From an uncultured bacterium (GTDB lineage: Bacteria; Acidobacteriota; Thermoanaerobaculia; Multivoradales; JAHZIX01), in contig CBDUPA010000024.1 in NCBI GenBank assembly GCA_965368975.1, forward strand, positions 1-64,000: a stretch of DNA of 64,000 bases. The letters run 5' to 3'. The position numbers and the translations under genes were made by a program. Position 1 is the stretch's first letter. Each line of letters opens with the position of its first letter. This document shows, piece by piece, positions 24,900 through 40,982 of this stretch. The notes beneath the pieces were generated by a model that saw nothing but the letters and a program-made list of their open reading frames with translations, was not told the origin of the DNA and ran no database searches.

Positions 24900-25141
24900 C
24901 TCTATGTCTCATCCTCTCCGACGAGTCACCCGAAGCTGGTTCGAGGCTTCGTGTCTGGGAGGAGGGACCCCATACAGTCATCCCACCCCGTTTCCTGCCC
25001 CATCCGGCGGCGAGCGTCAGGCTTCATTGTCTGGCTCGCCGCTCTTGCCGTATGCCTGGGAATCGCCGCGCTTGCATCGAAGGTTCCGGCGCGGGCGCCG
25101 TGGCCGCAGGTGGAATCGAGGTTTGCTAAGCTGTCGCGGCC

Positions 25142-26539
25142 ATGCGCGTCTGTTTCACCAACCTCGGCTGCAAGCTCAACCAGGCGGAGCTGGAGAAGAT
25201 GGCGCGGCAGTTTCATGCCGCCGGCCACCAAGTCGTAGCGACGCTCGACCGTGCCGACCTGCACGTCATCAACACCTGCACCGTCACCCACATGGCCGCC
25301 CGTGGCTCGCGCAAGCTCGCGCGCCGCGGCAGCCGCCACCATCCGGGCCTGCGCACCGTGCTCACCGGTTGCTATGTGAGCGAGCAGCCGGAGCAAGCCG
25401 CCGAATTGGCCGGCGTCGACCTGGTGGTGCCCAACGACGTCAAGGATGAACTCTTGGCGCGCGTTCACGCCGCCTTCCCGGACGAGGTCCCCGAGCAGCT
25501 GCACGGGCACCTGCAGGGACGTCCCGGCGACCTGCCCTACCTGCCCGAAGTCGCAGGCACCTGGGGGCCGCTCGAGTTCGGCAACACGCGCGGCCTGGTG
25601 AAGGTCGAGGACGGCTGCAACATGCGCTGCTCCTTCTGCATCATCCCGTTCACTCGCGGACGCCAGCACAGCCGTCCGTTGACCGACTGTGTTGCCGAAG
25701 TGCAGGCGCTGGCCGAAGGTGGCTACCAGGAAGTCGTCGTCACTGGCGTCCAGATCTCCTCCTACCGCACCCCCGAGGGTGAACGCCTCTACGACCTCGT
25801 GCACGCCCTGCTCGCCGACACCGACATCCCGCGCCTGCGCCTGACCTCCATCGCCCCCTGGCAGCTCGACCGTCGATTGCTGCGCCTCTGGTCCGAAGCC
25901 GGCAGCGCGCGTGGCGGTCGCCAGGGGACAAGCCACCACGGAGCAAGCCACCAGGGGACGAGCCACAGGGGCACCCGACTGTGCCGTCACGTCCACTTCT
26001 CCCTGCAGAGCGGCAGCACCGAAACCCTGCATCGCATGCGCCGCCCCTACACGGCCGAGCAGTACGCCGACCTGCTGGCCGAAGTGCGCGACGCCGTCCC
26101 CGGCATGGCCGTCACTACCGACGTCATCGTCGGTTTCCCGGGCGAGACCGACGCGGAGTTCGATGACAACCTCGCCTTCACCCAGCGCATGGTCTTCGCC
26201 AAGGTCCACGCCTTCCCCTACTCCAGCCGCCCCGGCACCCTCGCCGCCAACCTGCCGGACCACGTCGAGCACAGCGTCAAGCGCGAACGCATGGCCCGCA
26301 TGTTGGCGGTCACCGAGGCTGCGGAAGAAGACTTCCGCCGTGCCCAGTTGGGGCAAACAGCGGAAGTGTTGTGGGAGGGAGCGAGAGAGGGAGTGTGGCA
26401 GGGGATGACCGACAACTACCTGCGTGTCTTTACTGAGAGTAGCGAGGATCTGGGGAATCGTCTGCTGCCGGTGCAGCTGGAAGAGATGGTCGATGGGGGC
26501 GTCAAGGGACGGGTGCTCAGCGGTAGACGAGCTGCGTAG
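25142..26539 (+). CDS. mtaB: tRNA t6A37 methylthiotransferase (MiaB/MtaB radical SAM family)
   Basis: LGCKLNQAE, INTCTVT, TGC, CNMRCSFCIIPFTRG, DVIVGFPGET, HAFPYSSRPGT, GMTDNY. Confidence 0.9.
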   Translation: MRVCFTNLGCKLNQAELEKMARQFHAAGHQVVATLDRADLHVINTCTVTHMAARGSRKLARRGSRHHPGLRTVLTGCYVSEQPEQAAELAGVDLVVPNDVKDELLARVHAAFPDEVPEQLHGHLQGRPGDLPYLPEVAGTWGPLEFGNTRGLVKVEDGCNMRCSFCIIPFTRGRQHSRPLTDCVAEVQALAEGGYQEVVVTGVQISSYRTPEGERLYDLVHALLADTDIPRLRLTSIAPWQLDRRLLRLWSEAGSARGGRQGTSHHGASHQGTSHRGTRLCRHVHFSLQSGSTETLHRMRRPYTAEQYADLLAEVRDAVPGMAVTTDVIVGFPGETDAEFDDNLAFTQRMVFAKVHAFPYSSRPGTLAANLPDHVEHSVKRERMARMLAVTEAAEEDFRRAQLGQTAEVLWEGAREGVWQGMTDNYLRVFTESSEDLGNRLLPVQLEEMVDGGVKGRVLSGRRAA

Positions 26540-28370
26540 CTTTGGGTAAGGGTGGCGGCGCGTCGGGCTGGGCGAGCAGCATGTAGGCGAGCCACGCCGT
26601 GCCGCCCTTGCGCGCCACCACCCAGCGTGCGATACGTAGGGCACGAGCGACTGTCCGGCCGCCGGCGATGGCCCGGTAGAAGACGCGGGCCAAGATGGCC
26701 GCTTGACTATCCGGAACTTCCCAGCGAGTGCCGATGAAAGCGGCGGCACCGACCTCGAGGAAGCGCTCGGCGAAGCCGACGTCCCGGGTCAGGGCGAGGC
26801 CGGCTTGCCCGGACTTGCAACCGTTGAGGAAGACTAGGGGGTGACCGAGGCCCAGATCTCCGGCGCTACCGTTGAGGTCGACAGGGGTAAACTCTTCGCT
26901 GGCTTCCAGATGTAAGGCGTTGCGCAGCGGGTTAGTACTGGAAGCGGTCGCATGACCAGCGTAGTGAATGAGGTGGAAGTCGCCTCTCGACAGGGCGCTG
27001 GTCACCGCGTTGCGGCGCGCCACCACGTGCTGCCACTCGGGAGGATCTGCCAGGCCAAAAGATGCGGGTGTCAGGCGTGAGGCTTCCGGAAGCTTCGAGT
27101 CACCGGGCACGATGAGCAGAGCCTTGCGCCAGCGCGCTAGTTTGTAGGCCTGGGCCTTGGAGTGCCAGCGCGTCACCTCGAAGCGTTCACACAGCATGCC
27201 GAAGACTTCCACTCGACCCTGTGCATTCTTGCTCTGCAAGGTGCAAAGTTCCCAGGGGACCCAGCTCTCGTCCGAGTGAATGTGCAGCGTCCGAATGTGA
27301 TTACGGTGCTGCCATAGGAGGGCCTGGATTTCTGCCGGGAGCAGTTGATCGGTCAACTCGAAGCCCAGGTTGCGCAGATGCTGGCGAGACGGTTGCTTCA
27401 AGTCTTGCAGGTCCCGCAACAGTGGCCTCAGGAACTCCTGCGGATCTTGAGTCAACCACAAGGGCTCGGAGGCTTCGAAGTGAAATCCGATTGGCTGCGA
27501 GTGAGCGCGGACCACCCAGCCTTGACGTCCGTGTCGCCAGGTCCGACGAATGATCAGGTCGATGTCGGGTGCTGCGTTGCGCAGGCCGTCGAGATCTACG
27601 GACGACAAGGTTGCATTGTGCGTAGAGTGGCTTGCCGCCCGCATCTGCTTCGGCTCCGCCGTTACCTCCACCCTCAGCGTCAACTTGCCCAGTGCTTGAC
27701 CCTCGTGAAAGGCATAGATCAGGACCTTCGTGTTTCCGGTCTTCACGGCTCTGATCTTGAATTGCTCTGCGGGGGAATCTTTATCGGCATCGAAGATCAG
27801 AGTTGCCTCCCGCCGTTTGCCCCGCTCCAGTCCCGGTTCGACCTCGATCACTACGTCGACCTCGGCGCCCGGTGGCAAGTAGATCGGCATGGCGTCGAAG
27901 GCGTAGACGACCTCGGGTGTGAGGTAGACGAGGAGAGATGCAGTGTCACCGAGAACAAGCTGCTGCGGGAATTTCGCGTGCAGCGAGCCCGACACCCTCC
28001 CGCCGCTGCGCGCGCTGCGCGTCGGCCCCAGGGACCGCAGCTCGGGCGCGAGAAAGCCATAGACCTCACCGTCGTCATCGAGCACAACGCAAGTCTCGAG
28101 GGCCTGCTCGATCGGCAGGTTCCACGAGACCTGTTCTACTGCCTGTAGCTGGCCGAGTTGCAGCGCCTGCGCCAGTGGCTCATCAGTGTCGAGACGCAGG
28201 TGGCGCAGTGTCCGCCGGCTGAGCAGGTAGTAGAGCGCTCCGTGCTCGTCCTGCCGGCGCACGAGGACGTGGGTGAAGTCGACCTCTACCAGCCACTGCC
28301 CCAGACGCCGAGCCAGTTCGTCGGCGTCCAGGAGCAGGAAGCTGTGGTGCGCGGCTGTGCGTAGGGTCAT
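26517..28370 (-). CDS. CHAT domain (caspase-clan) protein with N-terminal accessory domains
   Basis: VPWEL, IHYAGH and VFLNGC dyad, FLEVGAAAFIGTRWEV; ATGA overlap with upstream gene. Confidence 0.85.
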   Translation of the reverse strand: MTLRTAAHHSFLLLDADELARRLGQWLVEVDFTHVLVRRQDEHGALYYLLSRRTLRHLRLDTDEPLAQALQLGQLQAVEQVSWNLPIEQALETCVVLDDDGEVYGFLAPELRSLGPTRSARSGGRVSGSLHAKFPQQLVLGDTASLLVYLTPEVVYAFDAMPIYLPPGAEVDVVIEVEPGLERGKRREATLIFDADKDSPAEQFKIRAVKTGNTKVLIYAFHEGQALGKLTLRVEVTAEPKQMRAASHSTHNATLSSVDLDGLRNAAPDIDLIIRRTWRHGRQGWVVRAHSQPIGFHFEASEPLWLTQDPQEFLRPLLRDLQDLKQPSRQHLRNLGFELTDQLLPAEIQALLWQHRNHIRTLHIHSDESWVPWELCTLQSKNAQGRVEVFGMLCERFEVTRWHSKAQAYKLARWRKALLIVPGDSKLPEASRLTPASFGLADPPEWQHVVARRNAVTSALSRGDFHLIHYAGHATASSTNPLRNALHLEASEEFTPVDLNGSAGDLGLGHPLVFLNGCKSGQAGLALTRDVGFAERFLEVGAAAFIGTRWEVPDSQAAILARVFYRAIAGGRTVARALRIARWVVARKGGTAWLAYMLLAQPDAPPPLPKATQLVYR

Positions 28371-29983
28371 GGCTCGAGGTCAGGTGAACCTGAAAGCGGC
28401 ACTGTCTGATGGTAGCCCGCTCGCTTCAGATGTCCGCCAAGCAACCGGGTCGCCGGATCGCCCAGTAGTACGAAGTTGCGCGCGTCGTTGTTGGCCAGCC
28501 ACAGCGCGTTCTCATCACGCGCAACCAATTGGGTGTTGCGGTTGGGGTCGATCTCGGCGTTGAGCATCGTGGAAAGCTGAGAGTGACGCGAGTTCAGCCA
28601 TTCCATGGCGTAGCCGGTGGTGTAGCCCATCATCAGGGAACGCAACACGGCTTCGTAAGTGATCAGCTCACTGCTTTCGCCGAGGAACGAGAATGAGGTC
28701 TCCCAGGCGCGATCGACGTGGCCGATGAAGGCGGTCGCACCGTTGGCGAGCAGCTCTTGTGGCAGCTTGGCCAGGAAGGGCTCTTCGGCGCTGAAGTCGG
28801 TGCCGTGGCGGTTCTGCTGTCGGAAGTGGTCATAGTTCGGGGTGCCGGCGCCGAAGCAGCTGAACTGGAAGAACACCCGTCCCAGCAACTCCATGTCTCG
28901 GCTGAGATCGCCGGCATGGAAGCACTGTCCCACTTCGGGTGGGTGACCGAGGCCGGGCCAATCCTGGCACAGCAAGGCACCTTGCTGGCTTTGCTGCAAG
29001 GGGTGGCTGCGCGGGTAGGCGAGACCATGCCCACCGAGGAAAGTACAAGCGGAGTTGCTGCTGCCAGCGAGCAATGACGCAAGTTGCTGCTTAGAAGCCT
29101 GATCCCCGAGGTAGCGGTGAATTTCCCACGCTTCCGGGATCTTCTCCAGGCGTTGGATGAGCGGAAGGATCAACTCCGCTTGCATCAACTGAGTCGCCAC
29201 GTCACGGGGGTTGCGAGCGGCAAAAAAGTCAATTCCCGGTTCGAGAGGACACCGTTGCTGTTCCGCACGCACGATGTTCTGCGCGTAGCGGGCGTAGTCC
29301 TCGATATCGTCGAAGTGCAGTCGGCCGACGGCATATTGGACGTCGAGTTCGAACTGTAGCTGATAGGGAATTTCGGCTGGACTTCCGACCAGTAGGATGA
29401 AGTAGGGCAGAGTCTCGGCATCCGGCGGACCCAAGCCGACGCCGACACGGCGCAGGAACTGGAAGGTCGATTCTCCTGGGCGGTAGCCGTCCGGCCCACT
29501 CCAGATCTTGTAGCGCTTTCCAGCTTCGTCTTCTCGATGGTCCAGCAGGCGCCGGAGCTTGTGCTCGATCTTGGGATCAGCATGTTGAGGGATGACCACG
29601 GCCCAGCCCGCTTCGTCCAGCCGCTGGTGGTTCACCCACGGCACGGGTGCACGCCTGGGCTCTAGCTTGGTGAGACGGTGTATCCGCTCGACCCAGCGCC
29701 GGATCCAGTCCAGGATCGTCTTATCTTTGGGTGGGGGAGTGCCGAAGCGGGCAGCATGAATCTCGTCCCAGCTCAAGGGGGGAGCCAAGTACTCGCCACA
29801 CCGGGCGTCGATGCCATTGAGATAGACCCACTCGCCGGGGGGAGGGAAGTCGAGATACGCAGCTTGCGGGTCTTCGCCTTCCCCCTTCGGGGTCTCTTCG
29901 ATTGAGCCGGGATCTTCGCGCCAACGTTTGCGCCACGTTGGGAGGACCGATCGAAACTCCTTCTCTGACGGTTCCTGCATCAT
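28367..29983 (-). CDS. Gingipain/C25-like caspase-clan peptidase
   Basis: PYFILLVGSPAEIPY..VGRL, GGHG and FSCFGAG dyad, FIGHVDRAW, FVLLGDPA; ATGA overlap with upstream gene. Confidence 0.75.
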   Translation of the reverse strand: MMQEPSEKEFRSVLPTWRKRWREDPGSIEETPKGEGEDPQAAYLDFPPPGEWVYLNGIDARCGEYLAPPLSWDEIHAARFGTPPPKDKTILDWIRRWVERIHRLTKLEPRRAPVPWVNHQRLDEAGWAVVIPQHADPKIEHKLRRLLDHREDEAGKRYKIWSGPDGYRPGESTFQFLRRVGVGLGPPDAETLPYFILLVGSPAEIPYQLQFELDVQYAVGRLHFDDIEDYARYAQNIVRAEQQRCPLEPGIDFFAARNPRDVATQLMQAELILPLIQRLEKIPEAWEIHRYLGDQASKQQLASLLAGSSNSACTFLGGHGLAYPRSHPLQQSQQGALLCQDWPGLGHPPEVGQCFHAGDLSRDMELLGRVFFQFSCFGAGTPNYDHFRQQNRHGTDFSAEEPFLAKLPQELLANGATAFIGHVDRAWETSFSFLGESSELITYEAVLRSLMMGYTTGYAMEWLNSRHSQLSTMLNAEIDPNRNTQLVARDENALWLANNDARNFVLLGDPATRLLGGHLKRAGYHQTVPLSGSPDLEP

Positions 29984-32900
29984 CGCGTTTTTCCTCTCCA
30001 ATCGCCGAGGTGGATAAAGCCCGCCCAGTGTGACACTGGCATGCCGTTCTCAATCAGCTGCTTCTGCGCTGCCCGCAGCGCTGCGGCGGGGCGCAGGCCC
30101 TGCTGGTACATGCCGCTGTAGAAGCGCGTCATCAAGTCTGCTGTGGCGTTGTCATCGACCTTCCACACACTCACCACCAGACGCGGTGCGCCGGCAACCA
30201 GGAAGGCGTGTGCCAGGCTCTGGACGCCTTCGCCGCGTAGCTCTCTGCCCTGGCCCGTATCGCATGCGCTGAGCACCACCAAGTCTGCTCGCAACCGAAG
30301 GCGGGCGATCCGCTGGACATAAAGGTAGCCGTCCTGGGCTTCGCCTTGTTCGTTCCACAGCGACAACACCAGTCCGGAGAGTTCCGGATGCTGGTTGTGT
30401 ACTAGGCCGTGCGTAGCGAAGTGCAGGATCCGGAAGTCGTCTAGCTGAACTCGGTCGAGGGTGGTTCGGCTGGCTGTAAAGCCCAGAGCCGAGAACGCGG
30501 GCCGGTCCCCGATCAGCGCGAGTATGGCTTCTGCCTCGCGCCGGGTACCAGGTAGGCGCGGCAAAGTGACGCGCCCATCGCTCAAGGCCCCGCGCAGGCG
30601 TTCACTCGGGATGTCTAGCTTTGTCGCAGTGTTACCGTTCCGTGGGTCGCTGGAGGAGTACACCGCGTCGGCGAGCAAGAACAAGTCCTGAGAAGGGGTC
30701 GTACGCTGCTCCAGGATGGGTTGTAGTGCGGCGAGGACGGTCACTGATGGAACCTGGACTACTTCGTAATCCTGGATCAGGAAGTTGCTTCCGCCACCAG
30801 GGGCGCGGAGGGCAGCGAAGGGGAGAGCGTGTAGCGGCCCGTCTGCACTGATCACCAAGCGAGATTTTGGCGCCCAGCGCGCTAGCGGGCCGAGCAGGAT
30901 CGTGCTGAGGTCGGCTTCCAATGCTCCCGCGGTAGTTGCGCCCTGACTCCAAGCATCGTGCAGTCGACGAACCTTCTGTTCCAACTCGGAGCGAGGTGGT
31001 AACCGAGCGTGTTGGAATTGGTGGTCGTCGATGTACCAAAGGTGACTTTGGTTTTCTCCAAGCTGATAGCTGACGAGGGCGGTGTCTTCGTTGAGCCAGT
31101 CTGCGCGTAGCTGTTGCAGTGTCAGAGAAGGTGGGTCGTTGAGATTCCGATAGTGGCGGCTGTCGACGCGGATCTCTGCATCGAGCATCTTGTACTGGTG
31201 CTGGACGGCGGTCAGTTGCGTCTCGATGGCCTCACGCTGCTCGGCAGGTACCTGCGGGCGCATCGTCCTCAAGCGTCGCTCCTGGAGCTCGTCGATCTCG
31301 GTCTCCAGGTCGCGCAGCCGGGCCAGAGTTGCCGGGGCGACATCGCTGTAGAGATCGACGTGCTGTTCCTGGAGCTGGTCGAGAAGGAGACGGGCCTTGG
31401 CACGGTCGGAGGCCTGCCAGGCGAGAACGCTGTAGTCCGGCAAGTCCGGACCGCTTTCGGCGATTACCACTGCTTCGGCCTCGAGTCGGATTCGATCGTC
31501 CATCGGAGGAGACGGTTGACCGAGTTCCGCCAAGACCTCGACGTGGAGCTCGTGGTAATGGTGCTTGATCGCCTGGAGCTCGCCGCGCAGCTGGCGATTC
31601 GGGTGTTGCTGGCGCAGTTGCTCCGTGAGTCCTAGGGCGCGCTCGATGTGATGGAGTGCCGTCTGGAGGTCACGCTGCTGGCGTTGAACCCAAGCGAGGC
31701 CGAAGTGGCAGGATGCTTGGACTTGAAGGATTTTTTGCTCTTCGGCGAGTTTCAGGGCCGAGTCGAAATGGGCAATCGACCCTTCGAGGTCGCCGGTCAA
31801 GCCGAGCGTTCGGCCCAGGTTGGCTCGAGCCAAGGCGATTCCAGGTGGAAATTTCGCCTTCTCAGCCAGTTCGACGGCCTGTTGGAGGTACCGAACGCTT
31901 TCGTCGTAGCCACCGAAGCGTCGGTACAGCTGGCCCAGGCTGTTGAGCGCCTGCAGCTGACCAGCAACCAGCCCATGCTGGCTGAAGAAATCCAGGGCCT
32001 GGCGATGGCTGGCTGCGGCGGTGCGCAGGTTGTTTCCCGCTTCTGCCAGGCGGGCGCGCGCTAGGATCACCTCGTCGCGAAGGGTAGGAGGCAAGCTCTC
32101 CAGGTCGGCGATAGGGTCGAGTAGATGGGCCGCATCGTCTGCCAGGTTGAGGGTCAGGTAGACGTTGGCGGCGCGAACGCGCAGGCGGATCTCCATCTCC
32201 CGCCTCGCCGGCTGCATTTCGGCTCGTGCGAGGGCGTCGAGATAGAGGCGCAAGGCCTGTTCCTGCTCGCCGAAGAGTTCGCGTACCTGCCCCTCGTTCT
32301 GCAGGGCAGCCGCAAGGCCGGCTTCATCTTGGTGCTGGGTCGCAAGCTGGCCGGCCTGTTGGAAGTGCGCGATGGCGGTGGTCGCATCTCCGGCCTTGCG
32401 CAGTGCCTCACCGAGATCGTTGTGGATGGTCACGAGCCAGATCTCACCCTCTGTGCCCAACTCTTCGAAGTGACCGCGTGCTGCCTCCAGTGGCACCAGG
32501 GCGGCCCCGCTCTGGTTGGCTCGCAGCAGTGCCTTTCCTTGCGCGCGCAAACTGAAGGCCAACCAGTCGCGCACCTGCAATTGCTGCCAGAGTTCGGCGG
32601 CAACGGCGAACTCGCTGGCTGCGACTAGATGATCGGTAGCTCGAAGCAGGCGTCCACGCGCGTAAGCCCTCTCGGCGTCCTGCTGTTGATGATGAACAGG
32701 GCCAACCGGGCTTTCGATTCGCAACGTGATCCGGCAGGTTCCGCTGCTGACTGCCGTCGAGGCGATGCGCAGTTGACGGCGGATCGTCTGTGCCCCATGG
32801 TGAACCACAGACAGCCTCTCGGTGCCACGGATGCTGGTCGGACGGTCCACCTCGATCTCGACGTTGCCCTCGGCATCGAGCAATCGGAGCGCGACATCTA

Positions 32901-33141
32901 CTCCTTGTTGTTCCGCCTCGATTTGACCAAAGGTGTTCGGTGGTAGGTCGAATTCGAAGTCCTGCCTGTCTTCGGCTGCGAAAGCAGTCGTAACAGGGGT
33001 GTCGGGAAGCAGCAGCATAGACTCCTCCGAAAGGGAACGCGAAGAGTGGTCTCCAGGCACACCTGGAACAATGCTGGCCAACGCTAGGAACAGACCGCCC
33101 GCCAGCTGCGAGAACGAAAACCGAATCGGGAATACACGCAT
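29980..33141 (-). CDS. Exported TPR-CHAT protease
   Basis: Signal-like N-terminus, EQQGVDVALRL beta domain, TPR array, ADGPLHALPFAAL, HFATHG, VVLSACDTG, SVWKVDD, HWAGF. Confidence 0.92.
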   Translation of the reverse strand: MRVFPIRFSFSQLAGGLFLALASIVPGVPGDHSSRSLSEESMLLLPDTPVTTAFAAEDRQDFEFDLPPNTFGQIEAEQQGVDVALRLLDAEGNVEIEVDRPTSIRGTERLSVVHHGAQTIRRQLRIASTAVSSGTCRITLRIESPVGPVHHQQQDAERAYARGRLLRATDHLVAASEFAVAAELWQQLQVRDWLAFSLRAQGKALLRANQSGAALVPLEAARGHFEELGTEGEIWLVTIHNDLGEALRKAGDATTAIAHFQQAGQLATQHQDEAGLAAALQNEGQVRELFGEQEQALRLYLDALARAEMQPARREMEIRLRVRAANVYLTLNLADDAAHLLDPIADLESLPPTLRDEVILARARLAEAGNNLRTAAASHRQALDFFSQHGLVAGQLQALNSLGQLYRRFGGYDESVRYLQQAVELAEKAKFPPGIALARANLGRTLGLTGDLEGSIAHFDSALKLAEEQKILQVQASCHFGLAWVQRQQRDLQTALHHIERALGLTEQLRQQHPNRQLRGELQAIKHHYHELHVEVLAELGQPSPPMDDRIRLEAEAVVIAESGPDLPDYSVLAWQASDRAKARLLLDQLQEQHVDLYSDVAPATLARLRDLETEIDELQERRLRTMRPQVPAEQREAIETQLTAVQHQYKMLDAEIRVDSRHYRNLNDPPSLTLQQLRADWLNEDTALVSYQLGENQSHLWYIDDHQFQHARLPPRSELEQKVRRLHDAWSQGATTAGALEADLSTILLGPLARWAPKSRLVISADGPLHALPFAALRAPGGGSNFLIQDYEVVQVPSVTVLAALQPILEQRTTPSQDLFLLADAVYSSSDPRNGNTATKLDIPSERLRGALSDGRVTLPRLPGTRREAEAILALIGDRPAFSALGFTASRTTLDRVQLDDFRILHFATHGLVHNQHPELSGLVLSLWNEQGEAQDGYLYVQRIARLRLRADLVVLSACDTGQGRELRGEGVQSLAHAFLVAGAPRLVVSVWKVDDNATADLMTRFYSGMYQQGLRPAAALRAAQKQLIENGMPVSHWAGFIHLGDWRGKTR

Positions 33142-33201
33142 CGCTAGACTACGCGAGATCGGCGTCCGAAAGAGACCAGACCCGGCATGCCCCCCTCGTG
33201 T

Positions 33202-34251
33202 TCAGGATCTAGGCGGAGTCGGCTCGACCCCTGGTGGCAGCAGTCGTATCCGTAGGTCCAGAGGTTCCGGTTCGCCGGAGAGTCGCAGGCGCAGCAGACC
33301 ATCGTCTTGCAACAGCGACCGAGGGAGGTTGACGTTGAGCTGGTCGTTCTTGGGCCAGTGCTCAGCAAGACTCAAGAGAACTGTGCCGTCTGCAGCAAGG
33401 AGCTGTAACTCTAGGGTTGGGGCCACGGTGGGCAGAATCGGCAGCTCGATGTTGACGGAGGCCACCGGCCTGCTGCTGTGCGGAACCTGGACCTCACCGA
33501 TCTCTGCGCGCTGACCCGCAAAGCGCGCGATCGTCTCCGGTTGGATGCTGACAGCCTGGTATTCCCCCAACTCCCGCTGCGCTCCCCACCATCCCCATCC
33601 CACCCCCACCAACGCCACGGCCAGCACCGCCGCCAACGCCCGCAGCCACACCGGGGACGTCGGTGTCCGGCGCGCTGCCAGGTTGACGACGTTGTCGACG
33701 CGACCAGCGCCTCCGCCGCCAGCCGTGTGCGCGGCTAGAGCCGTCAGGGCGGGGCGAATGGCCTCTTGGATCCAGTCCTGGTACAGGGGATCGAAATCGT
33801 CGTCTTCCTGGCGTGCCGAGGGGTCCAAGGTGCCGGATTCGAAGGCTTCGTGCACTTCGACGGCTCGTCGAAGCAAGGCTGCCGGCAACTGGCCGACACA
33901 GTGAGCATCGGCCAGGGCCGGGGTGCGGGCCTCGGTTTCGGCGAGGAAGGCACAGCGGAGCGTGAGGGGGCCGGGGAAGAAATCGGCCGGAACGCGCAGG
34001 TCGCTGATTCCAGTCCACTCCCGGTCGTCTGCTGGAATCAGGGTCAGCGCTTGGTCCTGCGTTTTCAAGACCAGCCACCAGAGCGCCGCTTCGCAGGTCG
34101 GAAGGACCAGCAGGTCTCCCGGCTGCAGGGTGGCGCCGTGCCGCTGTGCCGGGCGGCTGAGCCGCAGTGCAGCCTCGCCGGTCTGCAGACGCAGACGCTC
34201 TCGACGCTCAGCGGCGTAAGGGCTCGAGGGGGGTAGGCCTCCTTGCTTCAA
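33202..34251 (-). CDS. Single-pass membrane protein, putative anti-sigma/substrate partner
   Basis: GGGGAG RBS and TTG at 34251, 14 bp after the upstream stop; cytoplasmic N-domain, TM (WLRALAAVLAVALVGVGWGWWG), beta-rich C-domain. Confidence 0.65.
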   Translation of the reverse strand: MKQGGLPPSSPYAAERRERLRLQTGEAALRLSRPAQRHGATLQPGDLLVLPTCEAALWWLVLKTQDQALTLIPADDREWTGISDLRVPADFFPGPLTLRCAFLAETEARTPALADAHCVGQLPAALLRRAVEVHEAFESGTLDPSARQEDDDFDPLYQDWIQEAIRPALTALAAHTAGGGGAGRVDNVVNLAARRTPTSPVWLRALAAVLAVALVGVGWGWWGAQRELGEYQAVSIQPETIARFAGQRAEIGEVQVPHSSRPVASVNIELPILPTVAPTLELQLLAADGTVLLSLAEHWPKNDQLNVNLPRSLLQDDGLLRLRLSGEPEPLDLRIRLLPPGVEPTPPRS

Positions 34252-34265
34252 ACTCGTCTCCCCGG

Positions 34266-35381
34266 TCAGTTGGGTGGCTCTCGCCGGCAGCCTTGGAGTA
34301 GCCGTCCGAGAGTGGCGTAGAGCTCCGCCAGCCGGTCGCGGGGGATGTCGAGCAATTCCGACACCTTGCGCCGCGACGGGAAGTCGTCGAGATCTTCCAG
34401 GCTGGCGGTGCGGCCATTCGGCAGTCTCAGCTCTCCGGCGGTACTCTCGGCACTGAACACACACAGGAAGCGCCAAAGGCGGTGTAGGTAGTCCAGGGTG
34501 CGGTGGCGAGCAGGCAGGTTGTCGATGGCGTCCTCGACGCAGCGTACCAGGGCGCGGAAGACGTTGTGGGCTTCGAAGTCGCAGGCCTCTGGCTGGACTT
34601 GGCGCAGGATCTGACCCAGGTCACTGTCCGCGTGCTCCTGGGGGACCACTTCACCGGCTTCGTAGAGCAGGGTGCTCCAGTGCGAGCGCACGTAGCGCTT
34701 GATGACGTCGAGCAGCTGCTTGACGGTGAAGCCGTGGATGCCTTCCGAGCGCAGTTGGGGCAGTTGGGAACGCAGCCTCTCGGCGACTTGCCGTCGCCGC
34801 TTGCCACGCGCGGTGATCAGGTCGGGCAGCAGGTCCTGAGCCCACACGGGCACGACCCGGTCGAGGCTCTGTTCGATGTCGGGCTCGATGACGCCGCTGT
34901 CCGTGAAGCTGAGCCGCGTGTCGTTGCGCAGCACGCTGGTGCCGCCCAGGACGCGCAGCTGGCCGGCGTCGACAGCGCCCTTGAGCGCGGAGTGTGCCAC
35001 CTCGAAGACCCGGTAGCCCAGGGGGTCGTTGGTGCGTTGACGCTCGAAGACGAAGTGCTTGATGTTGAGCCGGACGAGGCCGTCGATGTCGTCTTTGACT
35101 TCGAGCTGGTGGAGTAGCGCGTTCAGCCGATCTAGAAAGATGTAGGTATACGCATCCGCCGTCAGCTCTTCCAGCGCGTCGCCGCGCTCGCTGTGTTCAT
35201 ACCAGTGGCCATAGCCATGTACGCCCAGGTAGCTGGGTGGGCTTTCCCACAGTCCACGGCGATTCAGTTCGCGCTTCAGCCAGGCACGTAGGGCCTGCCA
35301 GACGAGGCGAAAAGTTTCGTTGTCGGGTGGCTCGCCCTGTGGGTCGAGCTGCCGCACGTAATCGGTAAATAGACCGTCCAA
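34266..35381 (-). CDS. Atypical sigma factor-like protein with C-terminal HTH
   Basis: Region 2-like DALEELTADAY...; region 4-like LVRCVEDAIDNLP and PSRRKVSELLDIPRDRL; GGAGGGAG RBS with TTG start. Confidence 0.65.
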   Translation of the reverse strand: MDGLFTDYVRQLDPQGEPPDNETFRLVWQALRAWLKRELNRRGLWESPPSYLGVHGYGHWYEHSERGDALEELTADAYTYIFLDRLNALLHQLEVKDDIDGLVRLNIKHFVFERQRTNDPLGYRVFEVAHSALKGAVDAGQLRVLGGTSVLRNDTRLSFTDSGVIEPDIEQSLDRVVPVWAQDLLPDLITARGKRRRQVAERLRSQLPQLRSEGIHGFTVKQLLDVIKRYVRSHWSTLLYEAGEVVPQEHADSDLGQILRQVQPEACDFEAHNVFRALVRCVEDAIDNLPARHRTLDYLHRLWRFLCVFSAESTAGELRLPNGRTASLEDLDDFPSRRKVSELLDIPRDRLAELYATLGRLLQGCRREPPN

Positions 35382-35493
35382 ATGAACTCCCTCCGAACAA
35401 GGGCTCCCCGCAGGGATCCTACAGCATCCCGCGTCGACGAAATTCTTTTCCTCCGTTTCCGGCCAAAGTTGATTGTTAGTGCGTTAGGCAGGG

Positions 35494-35520
35494 GTGAGTC
35501 GAAAAAATAGATTGACTCGC
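35494..35520. promoter_or_regulatory. Inverted repeat in AT-rich divergent promoter region
   Basis: gtGAGTCga-N9-ttGACTCgc. Confidence 0.35.
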
Positions 35521-35610
35521 GTTTCGAAGTTCAGAAGCAGTGCCTGAGGCCCGTGAATAAGGGGCTTTGGGGAAAATTACAGAGGTTCTCTGTTAACCGG
35601 AGGTTTGTCA

Positions 35611-36714
35611 ATGTTTGGAAGTAGTTCATTTGGTGTATTTGTTTCCGTGCGTGTTTTTCTAGTGTCTTGCGTGGTGGTTGTGGGGGTCGGGCTCTCGGGT
35701 GCTGAGCTGCTGGCTCAGAGCTCGGAGCCCGGCCCTGGTCTCAGCCGACACGCGCTAGGCACTTCCCCACTCGGCATCTCGGCCGACGGGCTGCGCACGG
35801 TACGTGGGGCTGAAGGCCCCGAGAGTGACTCGGGAGTTTGTGTTGCCACCGCGGCGGCGCAGCTGAACCGCATCCTGCCGCACTACGAGGGCATGATCCG
35901 GCGACCGGGTGACGCGTCGAGTCTCGACAAGTCGACCACGACCTACAGCGCGGACGTCATCACCTTCACCGCTTCGCCTACCGGCGGTTGCTCGGCGCAT
36001 GTGGTGGAAGATGTCGACGAGTACGACGCTGACCTGGTGTCGATCTCCTTCAGCCCGCTGTGTGGTTCCAGCGTTACTCAGGAGACCGGTAGTGAAGACG
36101 ACTACCTGACGCTCGATCCCACCGCCACCAGCGGCTGTACCGCGCACGTGGTGGAGGATGTCGACGAGTACGATGCTGACCTGGCGCAGGTCACCTTCGA
36201 TGGCGGTGGCTGTGACGGCACGCTGACGGAGAGCTCGTCGAGCATCTACGTGCTGGACGGCACGGCCGGTTTCGACGCCGAGGTGCTGGCCATCCGCTTC
36301 GCCCGGACCTGCAGCGCCACCATGGCGCCGATCGCCGGCTTCGGCCCGCGCCTGGCGCTCACCTTCGATGGCGGCTGCAGTGCCAGCCTGGCAGACGACA
36401 TCGATGCGGCACAGGTCGACGTCGTCACCCTGACCGTGCTCAGCGCCGGCTTCCTGCGCCTGCAGGCCGACGGTGCCGAGCTCGACGCGGTGCTCTTCGA
36501 CGCCGGCGATTGGCTGGACGGCGCGCCGTTCTCCGAGGATGCGGCGGTGAGTGCGGGACGTCTGAGCCGCGACGGCAGCCTCTTCCTGCCGGTGGTGCCG
36601 GGCGCCTACACGCTGCACCTGCGCGGGGCGGCCGGCTTCGCTGGCGCCTACGAACTGCAGGCTGATTTGTTCGACGCTCCGGCGCCGGACGGTGGTCTCT
36701 GCGGCGACCGCTGA
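35611..36714 (+). CDS. Secreted acidic protein with internal 49 aa repeat
   Basis: GGAGG RBS; hydrophobic N-terminus; GCxAHVVEDVDEYDADL twice; C-terminal PGAYTL..GAYEL PPC-like domain. Confidence 0.75.
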   Translation: MFGSSSFGVFVSVRVFLVSCVVVVGVGLSGAELLAQSSEPGPGLSRHALGTSPLGISADGLRTVRGAEGPESDSGVCVATAAAQLNRILPHYEGMIRRPGDASSLDKSTTTYSADVITFTASPTGGCSAHVVEDVDEYDADLVSISFSPLCGSSVTQETGSEDDYLTLDPTATSGCTAHVVEDVDEYDADLAQVTFDGGGCDGTLTESSSSIYVLDGTAGFDAEVLAIRFARTCSATMAPIAGFGPRLALTFDGGCSASLADDIDAAQVDVVTLTVLSAGFLRLQADGAELDAVLFDAGDWLDGAPFSEDAAVSAGRLSRDGSLFLPVVPGAYTLHLRGAAGFAGAYELQADLFDAPAPDGGLCGDR

Positions 36715-36760
36715 CGCTATCGACGTGCACCGGTGTGCGCGCCGGTCGTGTGCAACTCGA

Positions 36761-36794
36761 TCCCCCCTCGGCCTCAGGTCGAGGGGGAGTTTCT
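36761..36794 (+). terminator. Hairpin, possible terminator
   Basis: ccccctcg gcctcaggt cgaggggg followed by agtttct. Confidence 0.5.
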
Positions 36795-36822
36795 GCGTAG
36801 GCTCTATGACAGACTGAGGGCC

Positions 36823-37038
36823 ATGGAGAAGACGCAGCCTTCGCCGCCATGGAACCCAGTGGTACCGAACGCGCCGCCATCGAAGTCAGCAGCGGAGCAG
36901 CAACGTATCGAGCGCGTCGCCCGCTCGGCGGTCGAGCTGCACCCGTGCGTGTGGGCGGAGTTTATCGAGCACGCTTGCGGTGACGACCGACTGCTGGAGC
37001 GCGATGTCGTGCGCCGTCTCGAGCTGCGCTTGAAGTAG
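36823..37038 (+). CDS. Small protein resembling the N-terminal module of Ser/Thr kinases
   Basis: GAGG before ATG 36823; RIERV...AVEL...AEFIEHACGDDRLLERDV..L pattern. Confidence 0.55.
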   Translation: MEKTQPSPPWNPVVPNAPPSKSAAEQQRIERVARSAVELHPCVWAEFIEHACGDDRLLERDVVRRLELRLK

Positions 37039-37063: not shown

Positions 37064-38041
37064 TTACCAGTTCAGCAAGCGGGCGAAGATCAACGGTGCG
37101 ACGATGGTGGCATCGGACTCGATGATGAACTTCGGCGTGTCCACCTCCAGCTTGCCCCAGGTGATTTTCTCGTTGGGCACGGCGCCGGAGTAGGAGCCGT
37201 AGCTGGTCGTCGAGTCGCTGATCTGGCAGAAGTAGCCCCACATCGGGATGTCTTCCAGGTCCAGATCCTGGTGCAACATCGGCACCACGCAGATCGGGAA
37301 GTCACCGGCGATGCCGCCGCCGATCTGGAAGAAGCCGATCGAACCTTGTTCGCTGGTCGCCTGGTACCAGCGTGCCAATTGCATCATGTACTCGATGCCG
37401 CTGCGCACGGTGCGCGGGTCTTTCAGCTCGCCGGCCAGGCAGGCGGCTGCGAAGAAGTTGCCGAGCGTCGAGTCTTCCCAACCAGGGACGAAGATCGGCA
37501 AGTCCTTCTCCGCGGCGGCGACCATCCAGCTGTTCCTCGGGTCGATCTGGTAGTGCTCTTCGAGACTGCCCGAGCGCAGAACCCGGTACAGGAACTCATG
37601 CGGGAAGTGGCGCCGCCCTTCTTGGTCCGCGGCGCACCACTCGCGCTTGACGTGCACCTCCAGCCGCCGCATCGCTTCTTCCTCGGGGATGCAAGTATCG
37701 GTGACCCGGTTGAGGTGACGGTCGAGGAGCTCCTGCTCCTGCTGTGGCGTCAGATCCCGGTAGTGGGGCACGCGCACGTAGTGGTCGTGGGCCACCAGGT
37801 TGAACAGATCTTCCTCCAGGTTGGCACCGGTGCAGCTGATGGCGTGGACCTTGTCTTGGCGGATCAGCTCGGCCAAGGACAGCCCGAGCTCAGCGGTACT
37901 CATCGCACCGGCCAGGCACACCAGCATCTTGCCGCCATCCTCGAGGTGTGCGGCGTAGGCGTCAGCGGCGTCGACCAGGGCAGCGGCGTTGAAGTGGCGG
38001 TAATGGTGGTGGATGAACTGGGTAACGGGACCTTGGCTCAT
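37064..38041 (-). CDS. Deoxyhypusine synthase family protein
   Basis: AGAMST, SCTGANLEED, DSTLG, IGGG, SYSGAVPNEKITWGK, ESDATIVAPL. Confidence 0.9.
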   Translation of the reverse strand: MSQGPVTQFIHHHYRHFNAAALVDAADAYAAHLEDGGKMLVCLAGAMSTAELGLSLAELIRQDKVHAISCTGANLEEDLFNLVAHDHYVRVPHYRDLTPQQEQELLDRHLNRVTDTCIPEEEAMRRLEVHVKREWCAADQEGRRHFPHEFLYRVLRSGSLEEHYQIDPRNSWMVAAAEKDLPIFVPGWEDSTLGNFFAAACLAGELKDPRTVRSGIEYMMQLARWYQATSEQGSIGFFQIGGGIAGDFPICVVPMLHQDLDLEDIPMWGYFCQISDSTTSYGSYSGAVPNEKITWGKLEVDTPKFIIESDATIVAPLIFARLLNW

Positions 38042-38136
38042 GATCTGTCTCCTCGGCGGATCGTCGGACCGGCTGGGCGCTAGCTTCCGCACTGGGGCCA
38101 GCGAGCTCTGAAGAAGGAAACCCTATCAAGAATTTT

Positions 38137-39213
38137 TCAGGGTTGGTGTTCGGCCTGCTGGCGGTTCTGCTGCATCTGTAGCGGTACCTTCGATGCGGCA
38201 CCAGGGATCTCGCGCACCAGCTTGGGGACCAGGTAGCCCGGTAAGCGGGCCAGTAAGCCGCCGTAGAGACCCAGGGCCTCGAGCTCGGGAACATCGAAGT
38301 GGTGTGCGCCCTGCACTGGGTCGAGCAGGTTGAGGTAGTAGGGCAGCGCGCCGCATTCGAAGAGGCGTTCACTCAGCCGGGCCAGGGTCTCGACGTTGTC
38401 GTTGACGCCGCGCAGCAGTACTGCCTGATTTAGCACCGTGACGCCGGAAGCGCGCAGGCGACCGATGGCGGCGGCGACCTCGGCATCCAGCTCTCGAGCA
38501 TGGTTGGCATGGAGCACCAGCACCGGCGTCAAGCGTCCGCCGGTCAGCCAGGCGAGCAGCGCATCGTCGACGCGCGCGGGCAGCACCACGGGCTGGCGGC
38601 TGTGTACGCGCAAGCGCCGCAGGTGCGGGATGGCGGCCAGTTCGCCAGCCAGCCGCGCCAGGGTGTCGTCGTGCAGCGACAGTGGATCGCCGCCGCTGAG
38701 CAGAACTTCCGTGATCGACGGGTCGGCCGCCAGGTAGTCGAGGGCTGCTTGGTGCTGCGAGCGGTGGACGGCCTGGTCAGCGTAAGGAAAGTGGCGGCGG
38801 AAGCAGTAGCGGCAGTGGATGGCGCAGGCACCGGTGAGCACCAGCAGGGCACGCCCACGGTACTTGTGGAGCAGGCCGGGGACGCCGGGGCTCGCCTCGG
38901 TCTCGGCCTTCGAGGTTCCGACCTCGGCCAAGGGGTCGCGAGAAAAACCCGCCACGGCCTCCTGCTCGACGTCTCGCGGCAATACCTGCAGCAGCAGCGG
39001 ATCGCGTGCATCACCCCGCCGCATGCGAGCGACGAAGCCACGCGGCACGCGCAACGGGAATTGCTGCTGCGCACCACGGGTGGCCAGCACGGAAGGCACG
39101 TCGACATCTTGGCGGTCGAGGTCGAGCAGGCTCAGTAGCTCGTCGAGGTCGGTGACGGCGTCCGCCAGCTGGCGCTGCCAGAGTGGTACATCCCGGTGTG
39201 CACGCGATATCAT
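38137..39213 (-). CDS. epmB: EF-P beta-lysylation lysine 2,3-aminomutase
   Basis: [52 protein letters not shown]; divergent from efp. Confidence 0.93.
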
Positions 39214-39358
39214 GAGCGGCCGTCCCGTGGACGCAAGAGATCTTCGACTTCCCGGACGCTCACGGTACGGTCCAGCCCCCATCGAGACAGCGGTCGAAGA
39301 GCATCCCGTTCAAGAAACACCATCGCGGTGCAAGCATAGCGGCAACGCAGGAGGAATG

Positions 39359-39922
39359 ATGGCCACCTACAACACCAATCAGCTACGCAACGGCCTCAAG
39401 CTGTTGATCGACGGCGAACCGTGCAACATCGTCGACATCGATTTCGTCAAGCCGGGCAAGGGCCAGGCGTTCGCGCGTGTCAAGATTCGCAACCTGCTCA
39501 ACGGCCGTGTGCTGGAGAAGACGTTCAAGTCGAGCGAGTCGCAGGAAGGCGCCGACGTCATGGAAACCAACATGCAGTACCTGTACAACGACGGCGAGTA
39601 CTGGCACTTCATGGATCCCAACAGCTACGAGCAATACCAGGCCGACGAGACCGCCTGCGCCGACGCCAAGCAGTGGATCTTGCCTGAGGACGTGTGCACC
39701 GTCACGCTGTGGAACAGCTCGCCGATCTCCGTGGCGGCGCCCAATCACGTCGAGCTGACCATCACGCAGAGTGACCCGGGCGTCAAGGGCGATACGTCTT
39801 CGGGTGGCACCAAACCGGCGACCCTGGAGACTGGCGCGGTGGTCAAGGTGCCGCTGTTCGTGCAGGAAGGCGAGAAGATCAAGGTCGATACCCGCACTGG
39901 TGAGTACCTCTCGCGAGCCTGA
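39359..39922 (+). CDS. efp: Elongation factor P
   Basis: [44 protein letters not shown]; AGGAGG RBS. Confidence 0.97.
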
Positions 39923-40982
39923 CGCCTCCTCGGGCGCGTGCCGCGCACCGAGGTGGCGCCCGACGGCGACGCTCGAGACGCTGCGCCAGCGTGGCGCCAT
40001 CTTGGCCGAGCTGCGAGCCTTCTTTGCCGAGCGTGGTGTGCTCGAGGTCGAGACGCCGCTGCTCGGCCGCGCCAGCGTGACGGCCGTGCACTTGCACAGC
40101 TTTTCCTGCACCTATCAGCCGCCCTTCGGCCAGGATCTCCCGGGCGAGCGGCTCCCTCCTGACGAGTCGCGCCTCTACCTGCAGACTTCCCCCGAGTACG
40201 CGCTCAAACGCCTGCTGGCCGCCGGCGCGGGGGCCATCTACCAGCTCGGCAAGGTGTTTCGCGACGGTGAGGCCGGCAGCCGTCACAACCCCGAGTTCAC
40301 CATGTTGGAGTGGTACCGCCCGGGCTGGGACTACCACCGCTTGATGGATGAGGTCGACGAGCTGCTACAGCGTATCCTGGGCACGCGCCCGGCCGAGCGT
40401 GCCAGCTACCGCGACGTCTTCCGGCGCCATCTTGGCCTCGATCCACACCAAGCAACGGGGGCTGAGCTGCGCGCCGTGGCGGCGCGCGCCGGCCTCGACG
40501 TCGAGGCGCTAGGACTCGAGGCGGACGACCGGGACGGTTGGCTCGATGCCCTGATGAGCTTGGTCGTCGAGCCGCGCTTGGGGCTCGACGTGTCCGGGGG
40601 CAGGCAGCCTCTCCTGCTGCACGGCTACCCGGCGTCGCAGGCCGCGCTGGCGCGCCTCGGCCGCGACGAGGAGGGAACGCTGGTGGCCGAGCGCTTCGAA
40701 GCGTATGTCGACGGTGTCGAACTGGCCAACGGCTACCAGGAGTTGACCGACGCCGCTGAGCTGCGCCGCCGCTTCGAGGACGACCTCGAACAGCGACGCC
40801 TCCGGGGCCTGCCCGCGGTGCCGCTCGACGAGCGGTTGCTGGCGGCCCAGGAGGCGGGCTTTCTGGAGGTCGGTCTGTCGGCGTGTGCCGGTGTGTCGGT
40901 CGGCGTCGATCGTCTGGTGATGCTGGCTGTCGGTGCCCGTCGCATCGAGGACGTGCTCACCTTTCCGATCGACCGCGCCTAG
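39900..40982 (+). CDS. epmA: EF-P lysine aminoacylase (GenX/PoxA)
   Basis: WRPTA N-terminus, [42 protein letters not shown]. Start uncertain (GTG 39900 overlaps efp). Confidence 0.93.

Follow-up and report, generated by a model that had tools for sequence, protein, structure and literature searches.

A putative sigma/anti-sigma-like switch encoded together with three caspase-clan proteases in an uncultured member of the Thermoanaerobaculia

Why should a gene for a sigma-like factor stand ahead of the genes for three different caspase-clan proteases? This question is raised by a five-gene cluster on contig CBDUPA010000024.1 (assembly GCA_965368975.1) of an uncultured acidobacterium of the class Thermoanaerobaculia, of which the first 64,000 nucleotides were analysed and are called the window in the following. 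An initial annotation of the window described five co-oriented genes at 26517-35381, with gaps of 14 and 60 nt followed by two ATGA overlaps; these coordinates were re-checked and are all correct. We lean towards reading this operon as a transcription switch of the sigma/anti-sigma-like type that spans the membrane and is controlled by proteolysis, is free of CRISPR (clustered regularly interspaced short palindromic repeats) components and is restricted to one lineage. The genes, here named G1 to G5, are the following:

G1, 34266-35381, minus strand: 371 amino acids; TTG start behind GGAGGGAG
G2, 33202-34251, minus strand: 349 amino acids; TTG start 14 nt past the G1 stop
G3, 29980-33141, minus strand: 1053 amino acids; 60-nt gap from G2
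G4, 28367-29983, minus strand: 538 amino acids; ATGA overlap with G3
G5, 26517-28370, minus strand: 617 amino acids; ATGA overlap with G4

No Pfam (E <= 0.1), NCBIfam or PADLOC family was found for G1, and a search of the ESM Atlas with the protein returned only clusters of unnamed 'hypothetical protein' entries, which are commonest in Acidobacteriota and Actinomycetota. Its AlphaFold2 (AF2) model, with a predicted local distance difference test (pLDDT) value of 86, comprises a sigma-2-like domain (residues 1-120), an inserted domain (~134-245) and a sigma-4-like helix-turn-helix (HTH) domain (268-371). In a wide VIA-align search with this model sigma factors make up some two dozen of the 38 best rows (Z 5-6.8). 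Residues 1-120 align with the T4 gp55-complex chain 7d7d_F (Z 6.6, root mean square deviation (rmsd) 3.2, 94 aligned residues) as well as with SigW (5wuq_A, Z 5.8), CnrH (4cxf_A, 5.3) and SigC (2o7g_B, 5.2), and VIA-align also places SigI6, SigE and sigma-E region 2 on this domain. Residues 268-371 match the sigma-4 domain of 3mzy_A (Z 6.8, rmsd 2.3, 70 aligned residues), SigL (6dv9_F, 6.2), WhiG (7lq4_A, 6.1) and region 4 of SigA (6ono_B, 5.5), and they align in addition with SigD4 and sigma-E region 4. The full-length chains of SigB, AlgU, sigma-32 and SigH extend over both end domains of G1, sigma-2 first and then sigma-4. Because the Z-scores are modest and the comparison with the PF07638 type of extracytoplasmic function (ECF) sigma factors is negative (see below), G1 is called sigma-like by fold and not a member of a sequence family. 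The sigma-like factor of the initial annotation is therefore borne out as a two-domain sigma-2/sigma-4-like fold in the model, though no sequence family recognises G1, and we read the protein as a lineage-specific factor resembling the sigma-70 family.

The next gene was annotated as a membrane partner of G1. The AF2 model of G2 (pLDDT 78) shows an N-terminal helix (11-32), a beta-barrel (46-121), further helices, a transmembrane helix (201-229) and an immunoglobulin (Ig)-like beta-sandwich (253-337) that would lie in the periplasm. Hydropathy indicates one membrane helix (19-mer 2.01 at residue 201), and Pfam finds neither TPR nor CHAT domains in the protein. In a VIA search the barrel region (40-140) is matched by toxins of the MazF/Kid/CcdB/CptN kind in all of the top 12 rows (Z 8.3-11.0); the best match is 8zws_A (Z 11.0, rmsd 2.3, 95 of 105 residues), and the next unrelated row follows at 7.9. 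Foldseek agrees with this result and reports MazF with TM (template modelling) scores of 0.60-0.76, normalised to the target. Judged from the model, the MazF likeness is one of fold only and is unseen by sequence methods. Since a word-index search with G2 found 2 proteins, the G2 alignment was built from the related loci. Within this family W59, D75, D84, R99, W160 and R248 are invariant, C100 is the only near-invariant cysteine, and DUF2080 is found in none of 39 members at E <= 1. The invariant Arg248 directly precedes the periplasmic sandwich; separases and Arg-gingipain cut after arginine, which makes this residue no more than a lead for the position of a cut.

The initial annotation had proposed to check the sigma/partner pair with a multimer model. 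Such a model was run for G1 together with residues 1-200 of G2 and predicts an interaction: three runs scored 0.84, 0.83 and 0.84, whereas the highest-scoring of 3 controls had 0.00, the pLDDT of the partner was 77-78, and at least 80% of the contacts were common to the runs. In calibration 116 of 157 solved complexes attained this mark, as did 2 of 215 mismatched pairs, counts which hold here only roughly because our own alignments were supplied for the G1-G2 model. The predicted interface is formed by residues 9-32 and the barrel loops 49-58, 76-78, 92-95 and 115-119 of G2 on the one side and by residues 12-28 and 63-113 of G1 on the other, so that the helix and the barrel loops of G2 are predicted to cover the sigma-2-like domain of G1. 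The designation of G2 as a membrane partner is in line with these data, as it appears as a single-pass protein which the complex model sets on the sigma-2-like domain.

The linkage of the two genes points in the same direction. G2 is detectable after G1 in 42 of 80 related loci, mostly at -11 to +39 nt. A 731-amino-acid open reading frame (ORF) in the source genome is a fusion of G1 to a C-terminal half that resembles G2 (hhalign 99.35%, E 6e-21), and a second G1-G2 fusion is found in P0003. Among the best 150 representatives of the G1 family, 49 have at least 600 amino acids. The long forms are not all G1-G2 fusions, as the C-terminal half of the long form P0002 is without a match to the G2 profile, and a Pfam scan of 29 long forms gave no family in any of them.

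A toxin fold encoded behind a DNA-binding-type gene may also bring to mind a toxin-antitoxin-like pair, in which the MazF-fold domain of G2 would be an active ribonuclease (RNase) toxin and G1 a DNA-binding antitoxin and autoregulator. The MazF/Kid/CcdB fold, the gene order with its short gaps or overlaps and an autoregulation-like motif upstream of G1 (see below) would all suit such a pair. We nevertheless regard it as very improbable. G2 has no PemK/CcdB sequence match, and the residues that are invariant (P23, T45) or near-invariant (R22) in the aligned PemK set have no counterpart among W59, D75, D84 and R99 of G2. The protein is anchored in the membrane and has a conserved periplasmic domain, and fusions of the presumed antitoxin to the presumed toxin exist. 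Furthermore, a MazF-like domain has been described in CalpT that serves as an anti-sigma (bioRxiv 10.1101/2024.05.08.593097).

The region upstream of G1 contains a candidate promoter of the operon:

35459-35486, minus strand: bipartite motif TAACG-N16-TTGGCCGG, 105 nt before the G1 start

In the form TAAC[AG]-N14-17-TGGNNGG the motif is present upstream of 37 of 79 G1 homologues in sense orientation and of 0 of 79 in antisense, while shuffled sequences gave a mean of 0.17 (max 2); many of the upstream sequences without an exact motif carry near-matches. Within 1.26 Mb of related loci 38 of 48 matches are located within 350 nt upstream of G1, and two of the remaining ones precede CHAT genes which open an operon (L077, L096). 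The 7.1-Mb source genome has 17 matches; three of its four G1 paralogues are preceded by one and the remaining paralogue by a near-match, but none was found upstream of its 19 ECF genes. The motif has the look of an autoregulated alternative-sigma promoter, and we take it to be the putative promoter of the operon. A scan of 25000-37000 with the sigma-70 consensus gave 0 promoter sites, and terminator-like sites in the same region were no more numerous than in shuffles.

In closer relatives (L029-L065 and others) further blocks with fixed spacing are seen ahead of the motif, namely a palindrome CCGATCGG or CCGGCCGG, then GGCGTCCCAAC and then TCGCCTCAGGC. The window retains only CCTCAGG of these, ~63 nt further upstream. 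The conserved blocks could be an operator or a divergent promoter.

The motif and the fusions also bear on the question whether G1 is a sigma factor at all. It might instead be an HTH transcription regulator that is tethered via G2 or fused to it, is released by proteolysis and binds the upstream motif as an activator or repressor. In favour of this, G1 is without sequence similarity to sigma factors, its structural Z-scores are modest, and the best row of its profile search against the PDB is a GntR-type HTH protein (E 0.22). The T-rich centre of the motif would allow it to be one extended operator, and there are covalent G1-G2 fusions, which are to our knowledge unusual for sigma/anti-sigma pairs. 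On the other hand, both end domains of G1 match sigma-2 and sigma-4 in the correct order and full-length sigma factors span both of them. The motif consists of two parts, is confined to one strand and lies at a distance suited to a promoter. Moreover CalpT, another anti-sigma with a MazF-like domain, binds a sigma factor (bioRxiv 10.1101/2024.05.08.593097). Altogether a regulator of this kind seems quite unlikely to us, and we keep to the sigma-like reading of G1.

All three remaining proteins were annotated as caspase-clan proteases with His/Cys motifs, and these motifs are present in the translations: HFATHG and LSAC in G3, GGHG and FSC in G4, YAGH and LNGC in G5. G3 has a CHAT domain at 744-1047 (Pfam 6.6e-63, 213 bits with a cut-off of 24) next to an N-terminal domain and TPR families, and an alignment of 10 sequences shows no change at H911 and C960. 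Its N-terminus is hydrophobic (12-mer 2.32 at residue 17), and in those orthologues for which a plausible start could be chosen a cysteine ends the hydrophobic N-terminal stretch, as in lipoproteins; for these two reasons G3 is read as an exported protein. G1, G4 and G5 have neither a hydrophobic N-terminus nor a membrane helix by hydropathy, and the G4 orthologues are without a signal. The distinction made earlier between a first protease with a signal-like N-terminus and TPRs and two others without signals is accordingly what hydropathy, Pfam and the N-termini of orthologues agree on. In the PDB a sequence search with G3 found TPR proteins only, and searches with G4 and G5 gave nothing useful.

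For G4 the Pfam match to Peptidase_C25 (5.2e-4, 19.8 bits) stays below the cut-off of 23. The protein has 1538 homologues, however, and most of the 120 that are listed carry PF01364; several are named 'C25 family cysteine peptidase' (Nostoc, Chloroflexota, Gemmataceae), and a few members of the family, such as P0162, P0172, P0173 and P0239, are fused to TIR_2. H319, G320 and C376 do not vary among 27 aligned sequences. As far as can be judged from sequence, G4 is like the C25 (gingipain-type, caspase-clan) cysteine peptidases and probably cytoplasmic. Ahead of the peptidase domain, at about residues 50-75, G4 and its homologues share a segment FNGIDGATGxYLLPPL across phyla, in which N56, G57, G63 and P68 are invariant or nearly so. 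This segment may have a docking or regulatory function.

G5 contains a second CHAT domain (6.5e-22, 78.7 bits, cut-off 24), a marginal N-terminal TCAD7 match at 9-103 (2e-5) and a beta-rich middle part. H473 and C518 are invariant in 3 sequences, and a word-index search found 7 full-length relatives. Both G3 and G5 are classified as CHAT peptidases (PF12770), as they combine a profile score above the cut-off with a conserved His/Cys dyad. The core of G5 (268-600) is homologous to CHAT proteins that are encoded directly after G1-G2 in the loci L029, L030 and L040; the translations of those of L030 and L040 have a cytoplasmic CHAT domain followed by a membrane helix. The genes after the G5-like CHAT gene in L029, L030 and L040 encode proteins of 765-978 amino acids with a CsgG-like domain, which hints at an outer-membrane or secretion component of that variant.

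How could these five proteins work together? The structural folds, the membrane topology, the predicted interface of G1 with G2, the linkage of the genes, the fusions and the motif were all obtained in silico. From them we infer the following course, including the signal, every cleavage step, the assignment of proteases to substrates and the binding of RNA polymerase. In the resting state G1 would be sequestered at the inner membrane by the cytoplasmic part of G2, that is by the N-terminal helix and the MazF/CcdB-fold barrel. G2 would cross the membrane once and expose its small Ig-like domain outside, where the exported G3 would sense a periplasmic cue and cut the outer part of G2 in the manner of a site-1 protease. 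An RseP-type protease would then cleave G2 within the membrane; a Peptidase_M50 of this type is encoded in the source genome (C5:178957-180204, E 1.9e-67). The remnant of G2 would be cleared in the cytoplasm, for which G4 is a candidate, and G1, once set free, would guide RNA polymerase to the promoter of its own operon, TAACG-N16-TTGGCCGG, resulting in a positive feedback. G5 would be a locus-specific extra cytoplasmic CHAT protease that provides a further input or output.

A stronger version of the switch can be formulated, which we put forward tentatively and would rather doubt than assert as a whole. It holds that G1 and G2 are an unrecognised sigma/anti-sigma family with a membrane-anchored MazF-fold anti-sigma, that caspase-clan proteases placed on either side of the inner membrane bring about the release, and that the exported TPR-CHAT sensor and the cytoplasmic C25-like finisher constitute a CRISPR-independent trans-envelope caspase relay to transcription. 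The single-chain G1-G2 fusions would in this case need cutting to act, and would be a bacterial parallel to membrane-tethered transcription factors such as SREBP.

Are the genes found together in other genomes? An exhaustive HMMER search revealed 666 representative homologues of G1, and for 348 of these the E-value is below 1e-30. Of 61 related genomes 30 contain the family, some with as many as six matches, and the source genome has four copies; a sample of 200 other genomes from across the phylum gave 0. The relatives that carry a name are nearly all metagenome-assembled genomes titled Thermoanaerobaculia or Acidobacteriota, and no homologue was found in 72,556 plasmid and 50,697 phage records. 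A pattern search from G1 alone gave 135 matches, none of which was confirmed; the pattern search of the family was based on a 7-row alignment, the 47-row alignment being too diverse. Neighbours were counted over 45 related loci with at least 8 kb downstream, and the neighbouring ORFs for the Pfam scans were chosen by a gene caller based on third-position G+C content (GC3), which has the strand wrong in places:

G2: 29 of 45 loci
CHAT gene downstream, same strand: 21 of 45 loci
CHAT gene anywhere within 10 kb: 27 of 45 loci
G4-like gene, always together with G2 and CHAT: 14 of 45 loci
PF07638-type ECF sigma downstream: 18 of 45 loci
Ser/Thr kinase with TPRs: 16 of 45 loci
Divergent exported PPC-domain protein upstream: 18 of 45 loci
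CHAT or ECF nearby: 38 of 45 loci

From these numbers G1-G2 is to be regarded as the core and G1-G2-TPR-CHAT-C25 as a recurrent form. The four-gene order G1-G2-CHAT-G4 recurs across several families of the order. Co-occurrence of the five genes as a set, which the initial annotation expected in other genomes, was not found; the form that does recur is G1-G2-CHAT-G4 (the 14 loci above), and G5 occupies the fifth place in the window only and is a locus-specific addition. The missing full set, together with the fact that the G3 and G4 families are widely found on their own, could be taken to mean that the five genes are mere neighbours without a common function. This is already disfavoured and hardly credible, since the genes are translationally coupled, the four-gene order recurs across families, other copies show a fusion of G1 and G2, and a binding interface of the two is predicted.

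A different arrangement, in which G1-G2 is followed by a PF07638-type ECF sigma factor and a TPR-containing Ser/Thr kinase, is seen in L034, L045, L061, L062, L109 (source genome, C11:205-209 kb) and others. In the source genome an ECF gene adjoins two of the four G1 paralogues. This genome (7.1 Mb) has 31 matches to Sigma70_ECF (PF07638), ~19 of them strong, which amounts to a marked expansion of these sigma factors.

A number of results weigh against the proposed switch. On the side of G1, Pfam sigma families were found in 0 of 47 aligned family members at E <= 0.01, the profile search against the PDB gave nothing below E 0.2, and hhalign of the G1 alignment against six PF07638 ECF sigma factors returned a probability of 0.5%. 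Foldseek with the G1 model gave nothing at E <= 0.001, its best row being a sigma-D model with E 0.3, and according to VIA-align's own note Z-scores of 5-6.8 can arise from a common helical arrangement. The anti-sigma side is affected as well: PemK or CcdB Pfam families were found in none of 39 G2 family members at E <= 1, hhalign of the G2 alignment against 14 PemK proteins gave a probability of 1.3%, and the score of the G1-G2 complex is a model's confidence, obtained from our own alignments. The motif could be the operator of another regulator instead. With regard to the proteases, the G4 family is widespread outside the G1-G2 context (cyanobacteria, Chloroflexota, Gemmataceae) and G5 stands outside the conserved cassette. 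The periplasmic site-1 scheme cannot be general, because the CHAT domains encoded beside G1-G2 in L030 and L040 are cytoplasmic; such loci suggest that the cut can also come from inside, like in CalpL/CalpT. Finally, an ECF sigma factor and a Ser/Thr kinase appear instead of or besides the proteases (18 and 16 of 45 loci, respectively), and the switch as outlined leaves this pair unexplained.

Which known systems resemble the locus? The closest ones are DdvS/DdvA, CalpL/T/S and Csx29/Csx30/CASP-sigma, of which the first two are nearer than Csx29, and the locus combines features of these three and of SAVED-CHAT/PCaspase. DdvA is a transmembrane anti-sigma, whose periplasmic TPR-CHAT part was proposed as its own site-1 protease ahead of RseP; DdvA-like proteins were reported from Myxococcota and one Comamonas (PMC11506125). 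In both cases a protein that crosses the membrane once retains a sigma-type factor at its cytoplasmic end, which for G1-G2 is a prediction, and a TPR-CHAT domain with a His-Cys dyad is located on the periplasmic side. The proposed order of CHAT cleavage, RseP and sigma release is also the same, and no CRISPR effector acts directly. In contrast to DdvA, where the TPR-CHAT part lies within the anti-sigma polypeptide, G3 is a separate exported protein, and the sigma factor is bound not by a zinc-bound (CHCC) three-helix bundle but, in the case of G2, by a helix and a MazF-fold barrel. G1 is, unlike DdvS, not recognisable as an ECF sigma factor. Two further cytoplasmic caspase-clan proteases are encoded here, no regulon of CRISPR or of the cyclic oligonucleotide-based antiphage signalling system (CBASS) is nearby, and the lineage differs, as the G1 family occurs mostly in records titled Thermoanaerobaculia or Acidobacteriota.

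CalpT is an anti-sigma with a MazF-like domain, which holds the ECF-like CalpS and gives it up after a cut by CalpL and further degradation of CalpT (bioRxiv 10.1101/2024.05.08.593097). The likeness consists in a MazF-like anti-sigma domain on a sigma-like factor, the barrel loops of G2 being part of the predicted interface with G1, and in the tripartite composition of protease, anti-sigma and sigma with a release by a specific cut and further degradation, which is proposed for the present locus. Sequence similarity was not detected, in a comparison made from the description of the system rather than directly with the CalpT and CalpS sequences. CalpL, however, is a SAVED-Lon protein activated by cyclic tetra-adenylate (cA4) and not a caspase-clan enzyme, and CalpT is soluble with a C-terminal DUF2080 that docks CalpL, whereas G2 is membrane-anchored, has a periplasmic Ig-like domain and gives no DUF2080 match. 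The CalpL/T/S system is also linked to type III CRISPR, while no CRISPR was found here.

In the type III-E system cleavage of the partner Csx30 frees the CASP-sigma factor, the protease being the TPR-CHAT protein Csx29 (PMC10028731). This was the precedent to which the initial annotation referred, and the encoding of a TPR-CHAT protein with a sigma factor and its binding partner is indeed shared. Csx29 is cytoplasmic and activated by the RNA-guided Cas7-11; here the TPR-CHAT protein is an exported one, its partner sits in the membrane, and the search for cas genes, which did not extend to Cas7-11, found none. The suggested independence of CRISPR agrees with the absence of Cas1 from the 99.3%-complete genome and of array-like repeats from the window, a result that again comes without a search for Cas7-11. 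In the type III-B system of Haliangium ochraceum, SAVED-CHAT and PCaspase form a cascade in which one protease activates the other upon a trigger by cyclic tri-adenylate (cA3) (bioRxiv 10.1101/2023.06.23.546230). Two different caspase-like proteases are encoded there in one locus with a putative sigma factor and an inhibitor. That cA3 cascade is cytoplasmic, whereas no SAVED domain is present here and one of the proteases is placed outside the membrane.

The latter system is a model for another explanation of the locus, in which it would serve anti-phage defence or abortive infection: the sigma-like pair would switch the operon on, and G4 and G5 would be effectors that degrade cell proteins. 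Triads of protease, anti-sigma and sigma are a recent discovery and, in the reports consulted, all linked to defence, being tied to CRISPR or defence islands (PMC11506125; bioRxiv 10.1101/2023.06.23.546230, 10.1101/2024.05.08.593097). The TIR_2 fusions in the G4 family, the TCAD7 match of G5 to a Pfam domain named after ternary conflict systems and the weak PADLOC match of G5 to BovA (E 0.001) would fit, as would the exchange of the partners of G1-G2 among loci, which is common for effectors of conflict systems, and the nearby integrase genes in L042, L074 and L087. The genomic context does not, and the role in defence or cell death considered in the initial annotation is left without support from it. 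The flanking genes in the window are housekeeping genes (MiaB-like, deoxyhypusine-synthase-like, elongation factor P (EF-P), tRNA-synthetase-like, SelA), and plasmids and phages are, as stated above, without a G1 homologue. The occurrence of the family in about half of the related genomes (30 of 61), often beside ECF sigma/Ser/Thr kinase pairs, is expected of a signalling family. PADLOC assigns to G3 a generic TPR model and has no model that fits G1, G2 or G4. A function in defence therefore seems rather unlikely to us in comparison to a signalling switch.

Within the proposed switch, the locus suggests that the same triad logic is used for ordinary envelope-to-gene signalling in one acidobacterial lineage. 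G1 and G2 escape every profile library searched, and if the switch exists they would represent a new sigma-like family with its promoter, and the MazF fold would have been taken up for anti-sigma function repeatedly, or else at an early date. G3 would then be a tractable bacterial caspase-type protease that acts in the periplasm on a defined substrate. The literature on CHAT/anti-sigma/ECF and on MazF-fold anti-sigmas yielded no description of the G1-G2 family, a statement that excludes supplements and covers few of the subscription journals; the novelty may be affected by Table S7 of PMC11506125, which deals with DdvA-like proteins, and by the source data of PMC7159879. Kaur et al. 2020 (PMC7159879) mention neither TCAD nor sigma factor, gingipain, C25 or MazF in the main text, and their passages on 'ternary' are not relevant to the locus. 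Papers retrieved for TCAD7 were unrelated ones only.

The operon is bordered by two genes on the opposite strand:

25142-26539, plus strand: MiaB-like radical S-adenosylmethionine (radical-SAM) gene; convergent, downstream border of the cluster
35605-36714, plus strand: divergent gene for an exported repeat protein; upstream border, signal-like N-terminus

The protein encoded at 35605-36714 is internally repetitive: a unit of ~45 residues with ...AHVVEDVDEYDADL... occurs in it twice. Pfam assigns no family to the protein at 1e-4. At the equivalent position 18 of the 45 related loci have the divergent exported PPC-domain protein; the similarity of the window protein to one of these is not significant. 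The gene may be co-regulated with the operon, and its membership in the system is uncertain. Its product could be cut by the periplasmic CHAT protease, serve as a ligand of that protease or be a partner regulated together with it.

Further away the window contains genes of the housekeeping type, for a deoxyhypusine-synthase-like protein, a radical-SAM protein, EF-P, a class II tRNA-synthetase-like protein and SelA. The first four are grouped together at 37064-40982, so that a deoxyhypusine synthase homologue adjoins EF-P and genes of the EF-P-modification type. The class II tRNA-synthetase-like gene of this group could, as we presume, be of the EpmA/GenX type. On the other side of the operon the ORF of the MiaB-like methylthiotransferase (25142-26539, plus strand) has a low-complexity insert …GGRQGTSHHGASHQGTSHRGT…, which matches a 15-nt tandem repeat at 25921-25971 and divides the radical-SAM match into two stretches.

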